Origin: Escherichia phage Ge15
DNA length: 64,000 nt
Sequence record: PP359696.1
Strand: one strand, 5' to 3'
Shown here: piece by piece, positions 54,787 through 63,652 of the stretch
Numbering within the stretch: position 1 is the stretch's first letter
Layout of the letters: every line of letters starts with the position of its first letter
Translations under genes and position numbers: made by a program
The notes under the pieces: generated by a model
Database searches by the model: none
What the model saw: only the letters and a program-made list of their open reading frames with translations
Told to the model about the DNA's origin: nothing

Positions 54787-55248
54787 ATGATTATTAATGA
54801 AAACTCTTGGCACTATAAATTATTCAAATTGTTTAACGATGAATGGCAACGACCTAAGACATTATGCGCATATTTTTGGTCTATTGCCATTCCTACATTT
54901 TTCGTTTCTATTTTTGGATGTGTTATACTCGTAGGGCTAACAATTATTTGTGCAGAAAGCCTACAACGTTGGCTTATTTTCGGTAGTTTATGGACTCTTC
55001 TTCCATCGGCATTTATACTTGCACTTTTGGTTGTTTTACTTATTATCGGTTCATTTGTTATTCCTGCACATTTGCGTGAAAAATATAAAGATTATAAATG
55101 GAAAAAGGATTATGCTTTACACGTAGAAAATATTGATAGGGCGTATAAAGGTTTACCTCCTATTCAACCCAAGAAATCGGTTATCGTTGAATTTTTAAAA
55201 GCTCGTAAAGCTAAAGTATGTCCTGTTATTGAATATAAGGCTGAATGA
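54787..55248 (+). CDS. Multi-TM membrane protein
   Basis: 153 aa with 3-4 hydrophobic helices; stop overlaps the NTase start. Confidence 0.5.
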   Translation: MIINENSWHYKLFKLFNDEWQRPKTLCAYFWSIAIPTFFVSIFGCVILVGLTIICAESLQRWLIFGSLWTLLPSAFILALLVVLLIIGSFVIPAHLREKYKDYKWKKDYALHVENIDRAYKGLPPIQPKKSVIVEFLKARKAKVCPVIEYKAE

Positions 55249-56258
55249 TGAAAACAGTAATGAAAAGCTATTTTGGTAGTCATCTTTATGGAACTTCTAC
55301 CCCAGAATCTGATGTAGATTTTAAAGAAATCTTTGTTCCTCCTGCTCGTGATATTCTTATCGGAAATGTTAAAGAGCATATGAGTAAAAATACCAACAAC
55401 ACATCATCTAAAAACACTAAAGATGATATTGACCACGAATTGTATAGTCTTAAGTATTTCTTTAAATTAGCAGCAGATGGTGAAACTGTAGCATTAGATA
55501 TGCTTCACACTCCACCTGAACTAGTGGTTAAATCTGATTTGCCTGATGTGTGGAAGTTTATTCAAGACAACCGTTCTCGTTTTTATACGACTAACATGAA
55601 ATCCTATTTAGGATATGTCCGCAAGCAAGCTTCTAAATACGGTGTCAAGGGTTCTCGTTTGGCTGCATTACGCGATGTATTGAAAGTAGTTAATCAAATC
55701 CCTGAGCAATGGGTTGATTACCAAGAAGACGGTTCCATTAAGCAGCGTCGTACTAAAGTTGAAGATATTAAGCATCGTCTTCCAGAAAACGAATTCTGTG
55801 AATGGGTGTTCCATAATCATGAGAAAACAGGTCCACAAACGTTCTATACAGTGCTGGGTCGTAAATATCAGACAACGCTTTCTCTTATTGAGCTTAAGCA
55901 GTCACTGAACAAATTAGATGCTGAATATGGTGAACGTGCTCGTAAAGCCGAAGCTAATGAAGGTATTGATTGGAAAGCACTAAGTCATGCTTGTCGTGGT
56001 GGACTTCAACTATTGGAAATTTACAAAACTGGCGACTTGATTTATCCACTCCAAGATGCTCCATTTATTCTCGACGTGAAGTTGGGTAAACATCCATTTA
56101 AAACAGTTCAAGAGTTTTTGGAAGATGTGGTCGATCAAGTAGAAGCAGCATCTACTGAAGCTTCTAAGAACGGTATGCAGCAAAAAGTAGACATGGGTTT
56201 CTGGGATGACTTCCTTGAGAAGGTCTATCTTGAAAACCACCGAAGTTATTATAAATGA
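55245..56258 (+). CDS. Predicted nucleotidyltransferase (Pol-beta superfamily signature)
   Basis: N-terminal GSHLYGTSTPESDVDF fits hG[GS]x9-13Dh[DE]h; 337 aa with helical C-terminal region. Confidence 0.55.
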   Translation: MMKTVMKSYFGSHLYGTSTPESDVDFKEIFVPPARDILIGNVKEHMSKNTNNTSSKNTKDDIDHELYSLKYFFKLAADGETVALDMLHTPPELVVKSDLPDVWKFIQDNRSRFYTTNMKSYLGYVRKQASKYGVKGSRLAALRDVLKVVNQIPEQWVDYQEDGSIKQRRTKVEDIKHRLPENEFCEWVFHNHEKTGPQTFYTVLGRKYQTTLSLIELKQSLNKLDAEYGERARKAEANEGIDWKALSHACRGGLQLLEIYKTGDLIYPLQDAPFILDVKLGKHPFKTVQEFLEDVVDQVEAASTEASKNGMQQKVDMGFWDDFLEKVYLENHRSYYK

Positions 56259-56260
56259 TA

Positions 56261-56286
56261 GGGAGCCTTCGGGCTCCCTTTTTTAT
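56261..56286 (+). terminator. Rho-independent terminator GGGAGCC-TTCG-GGCTCCC plus T-run
   Basis: Perfect UUCG hairpin followed by TTTTTTATTT. Confidence 0.8.
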
Positions 56287-56634: not shown

Positions 56635-57603
56635 ATGAAAACTGTAACTATCAATAAGGGTATCTACTTTGGCAAAGAAATCTCTGGAACTTTTGAGCTC
56701 TTAGGCGAATGGTTCCCAGATAATGCTCCGGTAGATGCACAAGGAGATGGTAAAGTTTTTGTTGAAATTGACGGTAAACGTCGCGGTGTTTGGGTTTACA
56801 AATCAGATATTTCATATGATGGTGTAAAAGTTGAAGAAGTTAAAGAATCGTATGAAGATATGAAAACCCGCATTAATAAAAGATTTAATGTTATGGGAAT
56901 GATGACGAATGGTATTATTAATGGAAATATTCGTTCATTAATTATCTCTGGCGCAGCAGGTATTGGTAAAACGTATTCTTTAGATAAAGCTTTAAATAAA
57001 GCAAATGATATTGGATACATTGAATATAAAAGCATTAATGGTAAAATCTCTGGTATCGGTCTTTATGAACAGCTTTGGAATAATCGTGAAGAGAATTCTG
57101 TCCTTTTGATTGATGATGTGGATGTTTTCTCTGATATGGACATTCTTAATCTTCTGAAAGCTGCTCTGGACACCGGAGAGACCCGCAAAGTCTGCTGGAG
57201 CACTGCATCTTCTTACTTAGAAGAAAAAGGCATTGAGCGTGAGTTTGAATTTAAAGGAACGATTGTTTTTATCACAAACGTTGACATTGACCGCGAATTA
57301 GACCGTGGTACTAAACTTGCTCCACATTTACAAGCATTAGTTTCCCGCTCGGTTTATTTAGATTTGGGTGTTCACACTAATGAAGAAATTATGGTCAGGG
57401 TTGAAGATGTTATTCTTTCAACTGACATGATGCAAAAACGCGGTCTTTCTGATGAAGAAACTTATAAAGCATTATCATGGATGAAAGTCAATGTTAATCG
57501 TTTACGCAATGTTTCACTGCGTACTGCACTTTATCTTGCTGACTTTATTATGACCGACAAAAACGGTTGGGAAGAAATCGCTGAGGTTACTCTTCTGAAA
57601 TAA
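56635..57603 (+). CDS. AAA+-type ATPase with N-terminal extra domain
   Basis: Walker A GAAGIGKT, Walker B VLLIDDVD, sensor-1-like VFITN; 322 aa. Confidence 0.6.
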   Translation: MKTVTINKGIYFGKEISGTFELLGEWFPDNAPVDAQGDGKVFVEIDGKRRGVWVYKSDISYDGVKVEEVKESYEDMKTRINKRFNVMGMMTNGIINGNIRSLIISGAAGIGKTYSLDKALNKANDIGYIEYKSINGKISGIGLYEQLWNNREENSVLLIDDVDVFSDMDILNLLKAALDTGETRKVCWSTASSYLEEKGIEREFEFKGTIVFITNVDIDRELDRGTKLAPHLQALVSRSVYLDLGVHTNEEIMVRVEDVILSTDMMQKRGLSDEETYKALSWMKVNVNRLRNVSLRTALYLADFIMTDKNGWEEIAEVTLLK

Positions 57604-58067: not shown

Positions 58068-58595
58068 ATGAACGCTAAAGATATTTTCAACCTGGTAAAT
58101 TACAACGATGGTAAATTTAAATCAGAAGCACAAAGCAAGTTCTTTAATGACATCTCAATCGGAGGTGAAATCACGGTTGATGGAGGACAAATTTACAAAT
58201 CCCGTTGGAATTGGATCGTTATTATTGATGAGATTGGTATCGTAGAAATTTATAAAAATACGAATAAAAATCGTACATTACACTGGTCTCGTGATACTAA
58301 CGAACAGTACAAAAAGGATAAAGCATCTAAATTATCTCGTGTAACTCAAGAAGATATTGAGTTCATCAAGAAAGATATTTTGATGTATGATAACTTAATT
58401 GCTGAAGAGCAAGCTGTTATTGATAAATTTGACGAGATTAAAGCTTCTCGTGAAATTCCTGATTTTATGAAAGAATCAGTAAATGAACGATACACTCTCA
58501 TTTCAGAGCGTATTGAAACTTACAAAAAGCAAAGAGCTGAACGCCAGAATACTCTTCGGAAGTTTGAAGAACGGTTAAAGACGGTACTCGCATAA
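58068..58595 (+). CDS. Hypothetical protein
   Basis: Start trimmed to MNAKDIFNL after RBS GGAGG. Confidence 0.5.
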   Translation: MNAKDIFNLVNYNDGKFKSEAQSKFFNDISIGGEITVDGGQIYKSRWNWIVIIDEIGIVEIYKNTNKNRTLHWSRDTNEQYKKDKASKLSRVTQEDIEFIKKDILMYDNLIAEEQAVIDKFDEIKASREIPDFMKESVNERYTLISERIETYKKQRAERQNTLRKFEERLKTVLA

Positions 58596-59059: not shown

Positions 59060-59947
59060 ATGTCAGTAGTAATTAATAATGTCAATGCAGTAATTAAATC
59101 TTTAGTTAATAAAAAATTGAATGAATGGACTGTACTTCGTCGTGGAGAGCCAGATAAATTTTTTCATAGATTTAACCCAACTTTGGATTTGAATGTTATT
59201 GACAGAGATGTTCATGCTGAAATTTTAGATAAATTTAAAGTTGATATTGGGTTTGGATTAGATAAACATTTACAACGAACAAACGGGTCTGGAATGGGTT
59301 TATCTAATCGCATTATGAAAGCCCTTAATAAAATTGGAGCATTGTCTCGTATTAACGCGAGTGAAATCCTTCGTAATTATAATAAAGGATATGACCTTTA
59401 CGGTCGACTAATGCCGAAATTATCATTTGACCAAATGATCGCAGATTTGTGGGAAAATCAACGACGATTATTAGCATTAGGCGCTAGATTAGCTAAAGGT
59501 CTAGATAAACAAATGATTTTTAAGACCAATAATACAGAAGACCTTAAATGCTTTAAATTTAGTATTCGCGGCGATGATTATTACGTCAGAGCTCGCTCTA
59601 CAGATTATGTTAATATGGGGCATCATCTCTGTTTAGCTTTTGAAGTTTTAAAAGAAGCCGGAACATTAGAATATGTGTCTGGTGCTAAATGCCCGATTGG
59701 TTCAAGTTGTATTTTAATTTATCGCCCGGATGAATCCAGTTTAACTAAATTGCCTACAAAACCTGTACCAGTTCGTAGTAATGAAAAATATTCCGAGCAA
59801 ATTGATTATTTTAATAAGCAAATTGAAGAGCTGAATATTTCTATTCAACAGTATGACGATGAAATTTTCAGACTATCTGGATTGAGTAGTAAAGCTAAAT
59901 CTGAGCGTGAAAAATTAATTAAAATTGTTGATTTACTTAAATCTTAA
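59060..59947 (+). CDS. Hypothetical protein with C-terminal coiled coil (array member 1)
   Basis: Start trimmed to MSVVINNV after RBS GAGG. Confidence 0.5.
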   Translation: MSVVINNVNAVIKSLVNKKLNEWTVLRRGEPDKFFHRFNPTLDLNVIDRDVHAEILDKFKVDIGFGLDKHLQRTNGSGMGLSNRIMKALNKIGALSRINASEILRNYNKGYDLYGRLMPKLSFDQMIADLWENQRRLLALGARLAKGLDKQMIFKTNNTEDLKCFKFSIRGDDYYVRARSTDYVNMGHHLCLAFEVLKEAGTLEYVSGAKCPIGSSCILIYRPDESSLTKLPTKPVPVRSNEKYSEQIDYFNKQIEELNISIQQYDDEIFRLSGLSSKAKSEREKLIKIVDLLKS

Positions 59948-59955
59948 GGAACACT

Positions 59956-60981
59956 ATGAAAACTCGTTCTCAAATTGAAGATATGGTTCGTAATGCCAGC
60001 TATACCCGTAATGTTATGACATTTTTGTGCCAAAATAATTTAGACCCTGATAAAGTTAATCGTGATATTCACTTTAAGTATATGAATAGCAGTGAATGGT
60101 TACGTCATTTTAATGAAGCAGGGTATATTACTCAAATGACTGCTCGTGAGCAGCTCACCGATTTCTGTAAAACTATTGATTATAAAAATCCTCTATTTGT
60201 TCAAGGCGTTGGTCAAAGTAAGGTCGATTTATCATCTGGATTTTTCAATCCGAATCATTATCGTATTGAATGGAGATTTATTGCTCTGTTCCGTAGACAA
60301 TTAAAGCAAATTTTGTCTACTGCTAGTCGATTAAAAGGCTCTGATATTAACTTAAAGAACCTGAAATTTGATGGTTATACTCTTCAGATGGAAGTAAGAC
60401 CATTAAAAGAAAATAATAGAACTGCACGAATTAGCTTTAAACCTAATACAAAAAATTCTCTTTCAATTTGTGAATGCCTTAAATCACAGTTGACAGAAGC
60501 ATTTAAGTATATGGATGTTGTTGCTGCTGTTCAATCTAAGATTTTACCTCGTTTTGAACGATTTAAGTTAGATACAACATCATATGAACTTGATATGATC
60601 GTTTCATTTAAATACGATTTTTTGAGAAAGGACGAAGTCCCGCAAGAGAAAAAGCAGGAAGTACAAGATAACTTAAATTTAAATTTATCCAATTACTTAT
60701 CAAACGATCCTAAATTTTGGATGTATAGTTCAGGTAATAAAGATGCATGGAAATTTAATAAAGTGAATTTTCTTCCTATTGAAAATCCGAGTCTTAAACC
60801 TGTTGAAAAATGGCATGCAGATGCAATTGAGAAGTCTATCAAGGCAGTAGATGATGAACTCGTTAAAGCAACTAATGAAGTGCTAGAAGCTGAAAAGATG
60901 TTGGAAAAAGCTCAAGAAAAAGTCAAAAATCTTACGAAGCAACGTTCTAAACTGAACAATGCACTAAATGCACTGAACTAG
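59956..60981 (+). CDS. Hypothetical protein with C-terminal coiled coil (array member 2)
   Basis: 341 aa; MKTR start; C-terminal heptad repeats. Confidence 0.5.
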   Translation: MKTRSQIEDMVRNASYTRNVMTFLCQNNLDPDKVNRDIHFKYMNSSEWLRHFNEAGYITQMTAREQLTDFCKTIDYKNPLFVQGVGQSKVDLSSGFFNPNHYRIEWRFIALFRRQLKQILSTASRLKGSDINLKNLKFDGYTLQMEVRPLKENNRTARISFKPNTKNSLSICECLKSQLTEAFKYMDVVAAVQSKILPRFERFKLDTTSYELDMIVSFKYDFLRKDEVPQEKKQEVQDNLNLNLSNYLSNDPKFWMYSSGNKDAWKFNKVNFLPIENPSLKPVEKWHADAIEKSIKAVDDELVKATNEVLEAEKMLEKAQEKVKNLTKQRSKLNNALNALN

Positions 60982-61010
60982 TTTACATTGCCACAAGGAT
61001 GTGGTATAAT
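60981..61010 (+). promoter_or_regulatory. T4-type early promoter (GTTTAC, TGGTATAAT)
   Basis: gtttacattgccacaaggatgtggtataat. Confidence 0.7.
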
Positions 61011-61038
61011 GTTCTTACTTTCTACTGAGGAGATTATT

Positions 61039-62040
61039 ATGACTCGTAACGAATATATCAAATCATTCAATAGCGTTATTGATGATAAAGCTATACCGAT
61101 GTTTGGTCAAAATATCATTCTTTCTATTATCAATCAATGGCTCAATAGTGTTGATGCAAGTATTGTTTCTTCTGCTAAATTTATTCATGAAATTCGTAAA
61201 ATTTCTAGCCGTGTAGATAAAGATGTTATCAAGAAAACTTTTAAAGAGTCTCGTCTTCTTTCATATTTGGTTAATCGGGATATTCTTGGTAATTTTGGGA
61301 AAGAAATTAAACGAACCAAAGATGTAGTAGGATATAATTGGTTCGGTGATGTTAATTCTTATCATCTTAATAATAAAGAAGACCCTGAGAATATTTTTAC
61401 TCGTCGTTGGATTAGTAATTTCAGACTTTTCAAAGGACAAATTCTAAAATCAGCTTCTAAATTATGTTATGGCGATTATCGTCAAATTCATCCTTTGGCT
61501 TCTGATATGATTATCGTAAAAGAATATGAGCTTGATGAAAATAAAGTAGCTATTTTTGTGAATTATGGATTTTTTACACCAAACGCTAACCAAAAGAATA
61601 TTAATAAATTTTTCTCAATTGCTAGCACTATAACTCGTCAGTTAGAGACTGCATTACTTTGTATGGAAACAGTAGAAAATATTCATACATATCCTTTTAA
61701 GAATATATGCGGATGGGAAGGATATAAAATTATAATTAGCCTTCGTGAAGTGAAACGTACGTACTCACCGACTGATAAAGAAATTTACCAACAAAAATGT
61801 GATGAAATTGTGAATACTCCTAAAGAAGAAACTACCCTTGAAGAACTAATGGAATGTCTTGACGATTCGCCTGAACCGATAGAAATTCGTCCAGAAGTTA
61901 TTGCACTAGAAAAAGCTTATAAAGAAGTTCTAGAAATTTCTAATAAAGCGCAGAAAGAATATGAGAAGGCTAAAAGGATTTGGGAAGAATCTGTTAATCG
62001 CCTTGATCGTTTGGAACAAGCTTTACAGTTAATTAAGTAA
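61039..62040 (+). CDS. Hypothetical protein with C-terminal coiled coil (array member 3)
   Basis: Start trimmed to MTRNEYIKSF after RBS GAGGAG. Confidence 0.5.
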   Translation: MTRNEYIKSFNSVIDDKAIPMFGQNIILSIINQWLNSVDASIVSSAKFIHEIRKISSRVDKDVIKKTFKESRLLSYLVNRDILGNFGKEIKRTKDVVGYNWFGDVNSYHLNNKEDPENIFTRRWISNFRLFKGQILKSASKLCYGDYRQIHPLASDMIIVKEYELDENKVAIFVNYGFFTPNANQKNINKFFSIASTITRQLETALLCMETVENIHTYPFKNICGWEGYKIIISLREVKRTYSPTDKEIYQQKCDEIVNTPKEETTLEELMECLDDSPEPIEIRPEVIALEKAYKEVLEISNKAQKEYEKAKRIWEESVNRLDRLEQALQLIK

Positions 62041-62092
62041 TTTAAAGCCAAGGATGGCTCGGAGTATAAATCATTAACCAAGTGAGAAGAAC

Positions 62093-63022
62093 ATGAAAAC
62101 TCGTAAACATTATATTGATTATTTTGACAGTCTTATTATTAAACACCGTAATTATCAGATCGGACACAGAGCAGTAATCAATAATATTCTTCGTGATTTC
62201 CTTCAATATGTTGGCCAGGAAAATCATATCTGTAAAGATACTCAAAACGCTTATTCTCATTCGTTGGGCAATTTGCTTCAATGGTTTAAACGTTCTCGTA
62301 TGTTATCTTCTACTGTAGCTCGCGATAACATTAAAAACTTTATGAAGCCGAGCTTTATTAAATCTGAGACATCTATAACTGATTTGGTTGAATTTACTAT
62401 TGTTAACGATGTTAAAAAGACCCATTTGGCTGATTGGTTATCTACCATTCCTGAAACTAAATTTGCTGATAAATTTGCTTGTCAATTCAATGACCAAGTG
62501 AATATGCTTTTTAAGCATGCTCGCAAACTATTTACCGCGGGCGATGACCGTACAAATACAGTTCATGTTAAGGACTGGGTTATTGCTGATGAAGTAACAC
62601 ACAAGCCAGGTGGTTCATCAGTATTAATTAATATCCAGGTTCCTTATTATTACTCACGTAATCTCGGCACCATGAACTCTAGAGAAATTAATAAGCACAA
62701 CAAAACTATTCGTTCGTTATCTTATAAACTCCGCATGATGTTAAAAATCATGGACGTAGTAGAAATGTATGACGAAACCGAAGATAATGGTTCAATGTTA
62801 TACAGTTCACGCATTTTAATTAAACTGAAGAACCCTAATACATATAAGACAGTTGTAAAAGAGCCTAAAGTAGAAAAGATTGATAACTTGAGCGAAGAAC
62901 GTGAATACCTCAAATCTCGACTAGTTGAAGTTGAAGCTCAGATTGCCGAACACACTAAATTGTTAAAAGCTCTTAATGCAAAAGCAAATGGTTTACGTAA
63001 TGCTATTGAGGTATTGAAATGA
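62093..63022 (+). CDS. Hypothetical protein with C-terminal coiled coil (array member 4)
   Basis: 309 aa; MKTRKHYIDYF start resembles members 2 and 3. Confidence 0.5.
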   Translation: MKTRKHYIDYFDSLIIKHRNYQIGHRAVINNILRDFLQYVGQENHICKDTQNAYSHSLGNLLQWFKRSRMLSSTVARDNIKNFMKPSFIKSETSITDLVEFTIVNDVKKTHLADWLSTIPETKFADKFACQFNDQVNMLFKHARKLFTAGDDRTNTVHVKDWVIADEVTHKPGGSSVLINIQVPYYYSRNLGTMNSREINKHNKTIRSLSYKLRMMLKIMDVVEMYDETEDNGSMLYSSRILIKLKNPNTYKTVVKEPKVEKIDNLSEEREYLKSRLVEVEAQIAEHTKLLKALNAKANGLRNAIEVLK

Positions 63023-63408
63023 AAAAGCGTCTATTAGAAGATATTGCAGCTTCAAGTAATTCCAGTCTAATTAAAATTATTATGGCTGGTGAAGAAGACG
63101 ATCTGGAAATGCGCGGAAAGATTCATGGTTGTGATGATTTAGATTTTAAACCTCCAGCCTGGGATGCTATTATGGTTATGGTTGAACGTCGCGAAAGGGC
63201 TTCTAAAAACGTTCCTAATTGTCCTGAATGCGGTACTGAACAAGTTCAATTGATTAACTGGCGTAAACCGGAACTTGAATATAAATGCCGTCATTGCAAA
63301 CATAAATTTAGTAAGCATGCTCCGGAAATGGTTAAATTACCTGACTCTACTGAGTTCTTTAAAGAACTTGCGAGTGTTCAACCAATGCCTAATAATATTT
63401 TGGATTAA
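63019..63408 (+). CDS. Zinc-ribbon protein
   Basis: CPECG ... CRHCKHKF four-Cys motif; ATGA-coupled start. Confidence 0.5.
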
Positions 63409-63409
63409 A

Positions 63410-63652
63410 ATGACAAAGCGTAAAGAATATATGGAGACTGCTGAAAAGGCAGTCCGTGAATTAGCAATAGCGTATTATAATGAACATGGTAAATTTCCTG
63501 ATAGATATAGCGTGCTTAAATCTGCTTTAACTCGTTCATATAAAAATATGCTATCAGAAGTAAGTGATATTATATACAAACATAAAGAACAAACAGGTCA
63601 AAGTCTTGATTACGACGAGACTTTTAAACAAGTACTAGGAATTAAGGAATAA
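63410..63652 (+). CDS. Hypothetical small protein
   Basis: Start trimmed to [10 protein letters not shown] just after the upstream stop. Confidence 0.45.

Follow-up and report, generated by a model that had tools for sequence, protein, structure and literature searches.

Four consecutive genes in the nrdC region of phage Ge15

A stretch of 64,000 nucleotides from Escherichia phage Ge15 (sequence record PP359696.1), here called the window, contains near its end four consecutive genes on the + strand, designated genes 1 to 4. An original prediction made from the letters alone had described them as a diversifying family of related proteins ending in coiled coils, and all four open reading frames (ORFs) are present where it placed them. 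Our comparisons indicate that all four are paralogs that have diverged from a single accessory protein of T-even phages, early and non-essential; gene 1 is assigned to this group, as a probable member, by its predicted fold.

By sequence comparison, the last 9 kb of the window is identified as the nrdC accessory region of a Tequatrovirus (T4-like) phage. Over its full length, the segment 58600-63700 shows 97.6% identity to phages such as vB_Eco_Geo, slur03 and Lutter, and 687 phage records match it. Read against T4 (NC_000866), the order on the + strand is nrdC.11,.10,.9,.8,.7,.6,.5,.4,.3,.2,.1 and nrdC. The four genes are collinear with T4 nrdC.6 to nrdC.3 and lie between nrdC.7 and nrdC.2 (Table 1). 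In tblastn comparisons with T4 the identity was 96% for gene 1, 94% for gene 2, 95% for gene 3 and 60% for gene 4. Each gene begins with an ATG preceded by a ribosome-binding site of the GAGG/GGA type, and identical gene calls are present in the 97.6%-identical phages, e.g. vB_EcoM_Lutter.

Table 1. Features of the four-gene locus. Positions refer to the window, lengths and residues to amino acids (aa); domains and helices are predicted.
Feature	Positions	Strand	Details
Gene 1, T4 nrdC.6 ortholog	59060-59947	+	295 aa; PHROG 2257; homologs with Pfam PF26899
Gene 1, central alpha/beta domain	59378-59725	+	aa ~107-222; AlphaFold2
Gene 1, C-terminal heptad helix	59783-59944	+	aa 242-295
Gene 2, T4 nrdC.5 ortholog	59956-60981	+	341 aa; Pfam DUF7235 (PF23882); PHROG 2351
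Gene 2, central domain	60115-60570	+	aa 54-205; homologous region in gene 3: aa 70-228
Gene 2, C-terminal heptad helix	60802-60978	+	aa 283-341
Candidate promoter (sigma-70/T4-early-type match) just upstream of gene 3	60982-61010	+	TTTACA-17-TATAAT, extended TG
Gene 3, T4 nrdC.4 ortholog	61039-62040	+	333 aa; PHROG 1435; homologs with Pfam PF26897
Gene 3, central alpha/beta domain	61291-61746	+	aa ~85-236; AlphaFold2
Gene 3, C-terminal heptad helix	61891-62037	+	aa 285-333
Gene 4, nrdC.3 ortholog and gene 3 paralog	62093-63022	+	309 aa; PHROG 1435
Gene 4, hypervariable block	~62243-62940	+	nucleotide identity to T4 54-71% vs 95-99% in flanks
Gene 4, C-terminal heptad helix	62876-63019	+	aa 262-309

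Existing databases hold one end-to-end match per protein (PHROG 1435, 2351 and 2257; PF23882, PF26897 and PF26899), all of them listed as 'unknown function'. Gene 2 matched DUF7235 (PF23882) with 405 bits over model positions 1-307 of 307 (gathering threshold 30 bits), a family to which genes 1, 3 and 4 gave no match. PHROG 1435, which already unites nrdC.4 with nrdC.3, was matched end to end by gene 3 (E 1.4e-166) and gene 4 (E 2.6e-115) in a hidden Markov model (HMM) search. NCBIfam and Pfam scans of genes 1, 3 and 4 yielded no informative match, and sub-threshold matches of these genes to PHL, integrase SAM-like and BipA_C were rejected. The nrdC.5 family is very narrow: an exhaustive HMMER search with gene 2 returned 12 representatives among 1.84 billion proteins and no bridge from gene 2 to other families.

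In many GenBank records, including that of Lutter, and in UniRef names, all genes from nrdC.1 to nrdC.11 carry the label 'thioredoxin'. This label has evidently been propagated from the gene-name prefix, as only nrdC itself is a thioredoxin/glutaredoxin.

The candidate promoter ahead of gene 3 agrees with 11 of 12 consensus positions, the best value in the region. It is a consensus match only; the record of phage Lutter has an annotated promoter at the equivalent position.

All four proteins end in a heptad-repeat helix

The C-terminal segments were analysed for a hydrophobic periodicity of 3.5 residues with a Fourier test, 2000 shuffles of each segment serving as control. Heptad periodicity was found with p <= 0.002 in genes 1-3 and p = 0.017 in gene 4. 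In all four tails one unbroken register extends across 48-59 residues, with hydrophobic residues at 79-88% of the a/d positions, so that the heptad helix predicted for the end of each protein was confirmed. The AlphaFold2 models have a long, solvent-exposed helical segment at this end, formed by one helix in gene 3 (285-332) and by two in gene 1 (242-271 and 277-294); in both models a low-confidence linker lies ahead of each C-terminal helix.

At the very C-terminus the heptad phase is identical in all four proteins and follows the pattern L(d)-x-x-[A/I](g)-[L/I/V](a)-x-x-[L/I](d)-[K/N](e). This motif was derived from these same four sequences and is descriptive only; the regular expression L..[AIV][LIV]..L[KN] matched only genes 1, 2 and 4 among the 121 ORFs of the window. 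Tail-only HMMs, one per family, did not raise the other three tails above background (E 0.3-2; 121 window ORFs), so that by sequence the tails share only a generic coiled-coil similarity. The idea that the tails form a common module detectable in the sequence was therefore abandoned. The similarity of the last residues that had been noted originally thus holds for heptad phase and pattern but does not extend to cross-detection by the tail HMMs; furthermore, the C-terminal strings had been listed in the order of genes 2, 3, 4 and 1, not 1 to 4. The common M(K)TR..Y(I) start that had been noted for genes 2-4 is well supported, as T2, R3, Y6, I7 and F10 are invariant throughout the nrdC.4+nrdC.3 alignment and distant nrdC.5 orthologs start with MNIKTRKEYS.

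Within the ortholog groups the tail is the best-conserved segment. Identities in the tail were 65, 33, 60 and 74% for nrdC.6,.5,.4 and.3 (the 65% of the gene 1 tail applying to distant orthologs), compared with 48, 25, 37 and 47% in the central domain; the most variable segment was the central domain or the N-terminus.

Two reference annotations lack this conserved end. In the T4 reference (NC_000866, 10008-10894) the last 37 codons of nrdC.6 are out of frame with the first 258 and, because of this frame change, the annotated T4 NrdC.6 (275 aa) has no conserved coiled-coil end; either the laboratory strain truly carries this frameshift or the sequence contains an error. The annotated NrdC.5 of RB69 (AY303349, 3473-4375; 300 aa) stops without the conserved coiled-coil tail (...NWTRHKLSSVMLKVL), so that the RB69 record may contain a frameshift or a truncation.

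Genes 2, 3 and 4 are homologous in their central domains

Among the six possible gene pairs, BLASTP related gene 3 to gene 4 (28% identity across 160 residues, E 4e-8) and gave nothing significant for the remaining five. For profile comparisons with hhalign, family alignments were built from database homologs and the neighbouring loci of other T-even phages. Gene 3 matched gene 4 with a probability of 97.6%, and gene 2 matched the merged gene 3+4 profile with a probability of 94.4% (E 9.5e-8). The latter alignment joins aa 54-205 of gene 2 to aa 70-228 of gene 3 and hence covers the central domain, not the tail. Additionally, phrog_26858 matches gene 2 as well as genes 3+4. From these profile alignments we hold genes 2, 3 and 4, with high confidence, to be homologous.

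The comparison of gene 1 with genes 3+4 by hhalign was not significant (best E 0.02). When alignment columns were shuffled as a control, a score as high as the observed one arose in 1 of 80 trials (z = 3.5). This weak alignment runs collinearly over the full length and agrees in register with the predicted structures; it pairs LSRINASEILRNYNK with SRLLSYLVNRDILGNFGK, and ARLAKGLD with ASKLCYGD, corresponding to the motif pairs LSR..A.EIL.NYNK / SRLLS.LV..DIL.NFGK and ARLAKG.D / ASKL..GD.

AlphaFold2 models were compared for gene 1 (predicted local distance difference test score, pLDDT, 79) and gene 3 (pLDDT 83) only. Both models have the same order of elements: a helical bundle, short strands, a long and a short helix, a beta-hairpin, a helix, a second beta-hairpin, the linker and the terminal helix. 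In the central domain of gene 1 this order is represented by a long helix (123-144), a short helix, a beta-hairpin (165-178), a helix (186-199) and a beta-hairpin (204-221), and in that of gene 3 by three strands, a long helix (119-142), a hairpin, a helix (185-208) and a hairpin. In Foldseek searches of BFVD the gene 3 model matched NrdC.6 of phage JS10 (E 2.7e-5, probability 1.0). Five matches were common to both models, all of them uncharacterised proteins of ~300-335 aa, from phages PM2 (Pectobacterium), IME523 (Enterobacter) and fHyAci03, Acj61 and Acj9 (Acinetobacter). Judged from the models, gene 1 probably belongs to the same fold family, though as a more remote member; it is the most divergent of the four.

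It is very improbable that the four genes are merely unrelated neighbours, i.e. separate T4 nrdC.x genes that became juxtaposed and carry generic coiled-coil ends by chance. Such a reading would agree with the five negative BLASTP pairs, with the separation of nrdC.6, nrdC.5 and nrdC.4/.3 in Pfam and PHROGs and with the failure of the tail HMMs to cross-detect. It is contradicted by the hhalign results, which lie outside the coiled coil, by the predicted fold and Foldseek matches shared by genes 1 and 3, by the common heptad phase and terminal motif and by an order and a position beside nrdC that are kept across genera; for genes 2-4 it is already largely refuted. The original prediction had named unrelated T4 nrdC.x orthologs as the case that would speak against it: each gene is indeed a known ortholog, yet the four are not unrelated. 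On the other hand, its picture, in which a common C-terminal helix carries variable N-terminal domains, does not fit, since the detectable kinship lies in the central domain and the architecture and the tails are not significantly alike between paralogs. The shared element is the whole architecture and not a portable C-terminal helix. What was known before are the genes as T4 ORFs and the nrdC.5 phenotype; the wider link, which reaches nrdC.5 by profile and nrdC.6 by fold, is not recorded in Pfam or PHROGs, where three separate families are kept.

A possible resemblance of the gene 3 central domain to tail terminator proteins

The nearest solved folds of the gene 3 central domain are tail terminator and tail completion proteins, and the weaker Foldseek matches of the gene 3 model also include one tail terminator and one tail completion protein. 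The terminator-type matches (phage 812, P74-26, Pa193, Mu and T5 p142) align over 83-119 residues, in keeping with residues ~85-236, where the model has its sole alpha/beta region. Since nitroreductases and ribosomal proteins score nearly as high against the gene 3 model, we do not claim membership of the terminator family and describe the centre of gene 3 as a predicted terminator-like two-layer alpha/beta domain. Searches of PDB sequences, for which gene 2 itself and profiles of genes 1 and 3 served as queries, returned only designed helical repeats or noise.

The terminators compared were lambda gpU (3fz2), T5 p142 (8bcp), that of a gene transfer agent (GTA, 6tba_4A), SaPI1 DUF3168 (9mu2_D) and Mu (9khy); identity between the nrdC proteins and tail terminator or completion proteins is ~8%. 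Unlike terminators, the nrdC proteins have an additional bundle at the N-terminus and end in a coiled coil. Terminators are encoded in a late tail/neck module and are required for virion assembly; neither holds for the nrdC genes, which are dispensable, belong to the early accessory region and are not part of the tail module.

The four genes evolve faster than their neighbours and vary in allele and copy number

Compared with the Gaprivervirus and Dhakavirus loci, protein identity was 45-51% for nrdC.6, 23-28% for nrdC.5 and 42-51% for nrdC.4, but 67-87% for the neighbours nrdC.11,.10,.8,.1 and nrdC. Within Tequatrovirus the ratio of nonsynonymous to synonymous divergence (dN/dS) was 0.15-0.31 for genes 2-4 and 0.00-0.08 for the same neighbours. 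Thus protein evolution is faster; gene-wide positive selection was not demonstrated.

Gene 4 showed a synonymous divergence (dS) of ~1.0-1.2, compared with 0.1-0.2 in neighbouring genes, and contains the hypervariable block listed in Table 1. nrdC.3 is a mosaic gene with three deeply diverged alleles. Among 653 phage records, 357 carry an allele at least 90% identical to gene 4, ~190 the RB69 type (75-80%) and ~100 the T4/T2 type (~60%). A restriction of nrdC.3 to Tequatrovirus was ruled out, as Mosigviruses of the RB69 group carry the gene.

Within Straboviridae the family has one, three or four copies, and their order and place beside nrdC are kept across genera. T4-like phages have the array.6/.5/.4/.3, RB69 has.6/.5/.3 and phages of the JS98 and VR types have.6/.5/.4. 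Jiaodavirus and the Acinetobacter T4-like phages have one supported copy adjoining nrdC, and Moonvirus has one candidate at this place, of which the tail alone matches. The Acinetobacter copy and the fHyAci03 protein matched by both structural models share 97.6% identity. When distant Straboviridae candidates were aligned as single sequences by hhalign, the result was significant for the Jiaodavirus protein only (93%), and the wider family consequently rests on Foldseek. Taken together, the profile and fold comparisons, the divergence rates, dN/dS and the alleles bear out the diversifying, related family that had been proposed, and the suggested comparison of copy number across related phages showed the variation described.

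Several rearranged forms of these genes were also found. A database protein of 299 aa (P0111), present on contigs of up to 167 kb, is an in-frame nrdC.5/nrdC.3 hybrid in which nrdC.4 is deleted. It consists of nrdC.5 aa 145-273 (97% identical) and nrdC.3 aa ~136-309, corresponding to 60388-60774 and 62498-63019 of the window, and its junction lies at a micro-homology, FN.(K/Q)VN, common to both genes. In phage ACG-C40 only the last 72 residues of nrdC.3 remain. The hybrid and the ACG-C40 form suggest recombination between paralogs. NrdC.6 of Shigella phage Sf25 (P0113, 378 aa) has an internal tandem duplication of residues 176-258 (window 59585-59833), which spans part of the central domain and the linker. 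An ORF of 173 aa with an unknown N-terminus and the last 55 residues of NrdC.5 (P0222) was rejected as evidence for a module swap: in its source, the metagenomic ENA contig k141_89665 (803 bp), the first 479 bases match no phage, and the contig is probably an assembly chimera.

Neighbouring genes

nrdC.11 (55245-56258) matches the RlaP nucleotidyltransferase family (E 2e-11) and is followed by a perfect, GC-rich 8-bp hairpin (56260-56279) that reads as a terminator on both strands. nrdC.10 (56635-57603) encodes a Walker-A ATPase with weak AAA/STAND-type matches. The product of nrdC.8 (58068-58595, 175 aa) ends in a K/E/R-rich helical tail (...ERIETYKKQRAERQNTLRKFEERLKTVLA) that is kept in other T-even genera. 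In RB69, nrdC.7 is located downstream of nrdC.2 rather than upstream of nrdC.6. The 3' part of nrdC.2 (63019-63408), at 63140-63440, is divergent from T4 (35-77% nucleotide identity, with indels); its product has 129 aa in the window, compared with 104 aa for the annotated T4 coding sequence (315 nt), and gave sub-threshold zinc-ribbon matches.

nrdC.5 and the defence protein Dsr1

Functional evidence comes from T4. Srikant, Guegler and Laub (eLife 2022; PMC9391042) reported that a T4 clone missing the nrdC.5 region failed to infect ECOR17, that deletion of dsr1 restored infection and that plasmid-borne dsr1 protected MG1655. Expression of nrdC.5 alone gave back plaquing of the T4 deletion mutant on Escherichia coli carrying Dsr1. 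The locus is dispensable in the laboratory, and it was lost in evolved T4 clones with no defect on MG1655 (PMC9391042). According to a 2026 preprint (PMC12803255), E. coli Dsr1 and Avs7 have a tetratricopeptide repeat (TPR) sensor in common, for which the phage major capsid protein is the trigger, and other Avs families sense tail terminator, connector and tail tube folds. Gene 2, being 94% identical to T4 NrdC.5, is the counterpart of the published anti-Dsr1 factor. It shares position and DUF7235 with T4 NrdC.5, to which genes 3 and 4 are homologous in the central domain. PMC9391042 treats nrdC.5 as a lone uncharacterised gene, without mechanism, structure or paralogs, and literature searches for nrdC.3,.4 and.6, for the Pfam accessions and for later work on the nrdC.5 mechanism revealed, in the library searched, nothing beyond that paper. 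The proposed anti-defence locus is hence supported by T4 nrdC.5, while a corresponding role of genes 1, 3 and 4 is inferred from kinship.

We favour the view, at a probability of roughly 0.55, that the four genes are paralogs whose products are made early, form oligomers and counter host defence by binding and blocking immune sensors. In the proposed model every member has an N-terminal helical bundle, a central alpha/beta domain of ~120-150 residues that resembles tail terminators, a flexible linker and a heptad helix of ~50 residues. The helix would most likely drive homo-oligomerisation and thereby supply avidity. The proteins would most likely act as stoichiometric binders of host immune sensors, and each paralog may be tuned to another target through its fast-evolving central and N-terminal surfaces. 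NrdC.5, made early, would occupy or lock the SIR2 NADase Dsr1 before the late major capsid protein, the trigger of Dsr1, appears. Besides the homology and the nrdC.5 phenotype, the fast divergence, the dN/dS values, the mosaic nrdC.3 alleles and the variable array, read as signs of an arms race, and the early-type promoter match ahead of gene 3 speak for this view.

Several observations weigh against this view. The functional data concern one member only, the T4 allele of nrdC.5, and demonstrate suppression at the genetic level but not binding. Gene 1 is joined to the others by predicted structures of pLDDT 79 and 83 and by a profile alignment that is not significant. Furthermore, the dN/dS of gene 1 within the genus is ~0.06-0.07, which is like that of a conserved gene, and gene-wide dN/dS is below 1 in all four genes.

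With distinctly lower probability, the genes could be true paralogs with a non-immune role in early host takeover, regulation or an assembly-related process, for example as scaffolds that bind host or phage proteins via the terminator-like domain, and the effect of nrdC.5 on Dsr1 would then be indirect. This would agree with the resemblance of the central domain to tail terminator and completion proteins, with the AAA-type ATPase (nrdC.10) and the RlaP-type nucleotidyltransferase (nrdC.11) among the neighbours, with the strong purifying selection on nrdC.6 within the genus and with the fact that the anti-Dsr1 mechanism was not determined in PMC9391042. It fits less well with the dispensability of the genes on laboratory hosts and their loss in evolved T4 clones that showed no defect on MG1655, with their location in an early transcription unit instead of the tail module, with a divergence far above that of housekeeping neighbours combined with variable copy number and alleles, and with the rescue of infection on the Dsr1 host by nrdC.5 expression alone.

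The terminator-like fold also admits a more specific and, in our estimate, unlikely scenario, in which the proteins are early decoys of virion folds. The terminator-like domain, mounted on a coiled coil that prevents productive assembly, would plug the TPR sensor clefts of Dsr1/Avs-type proteins, each paralog or allele being matched to a different sensor. Bacterial sensors do recognise tail terminator, head-tail connector, tail tube and capsid folds (PMC12803255), and nrdC.5 neutralises a sensor of that class, Dsr1. The trigger of Dsr1 is, however, the major capsid protein and not a terminator, and the fold scores are modest.

The favoured family of sensor-blocking binders has parallels among known phage systems. 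DSAD1 of the SPbeta group (PMC10981675, PMC11087589) is a functional analogue, a phage protein that neutralises DSR2, a SIR2-NADase sensor-effector activated by a virion protein. DSAD1 differs in belonging to another phage group and in its target, DSR2 being triggered by the tail tube protein, and the two were compared by function only. By analogy, NrdC.5 might likewise bind the sensor region of its target. The 'anti-toxin-antitoxin (anti-TA) island' of T4, dmd-tifA-adfA (PMC9391042), similarly consists of small, early, non-essential genes, each directed against a different host defence, and genes of this type are readily amplified or deleted (PMC9391042). Whereas the dmd-tifA-adfA genes are mutually unrelated, the neighbours nrdC.6 to nrdC.3 are paralogs of one fold.

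In T4, the reference phage, nrdC.3, nrdC.4 and nrdC.6 have no assigned function, and nrdC.5 has a phenotype without a mechanism. With the common architecture, what was a single orphan anti-defence gene becomes a family whose domain boundaries can be tested, and three more proteins as well as the three alleles of nrdC.3 become candidates for defence-system screens. The architecture also suggests a division of labour, with specificity residing in the fast-evolving centre and a common function in the conserved coiled-coil tail. Finally, the family extends to T4-like phages of Acinetobacter, Klebsiella, Serratia, Erwinia and Aeromonas, and could help to explain differences in host range among therapeutic Straboviridae.

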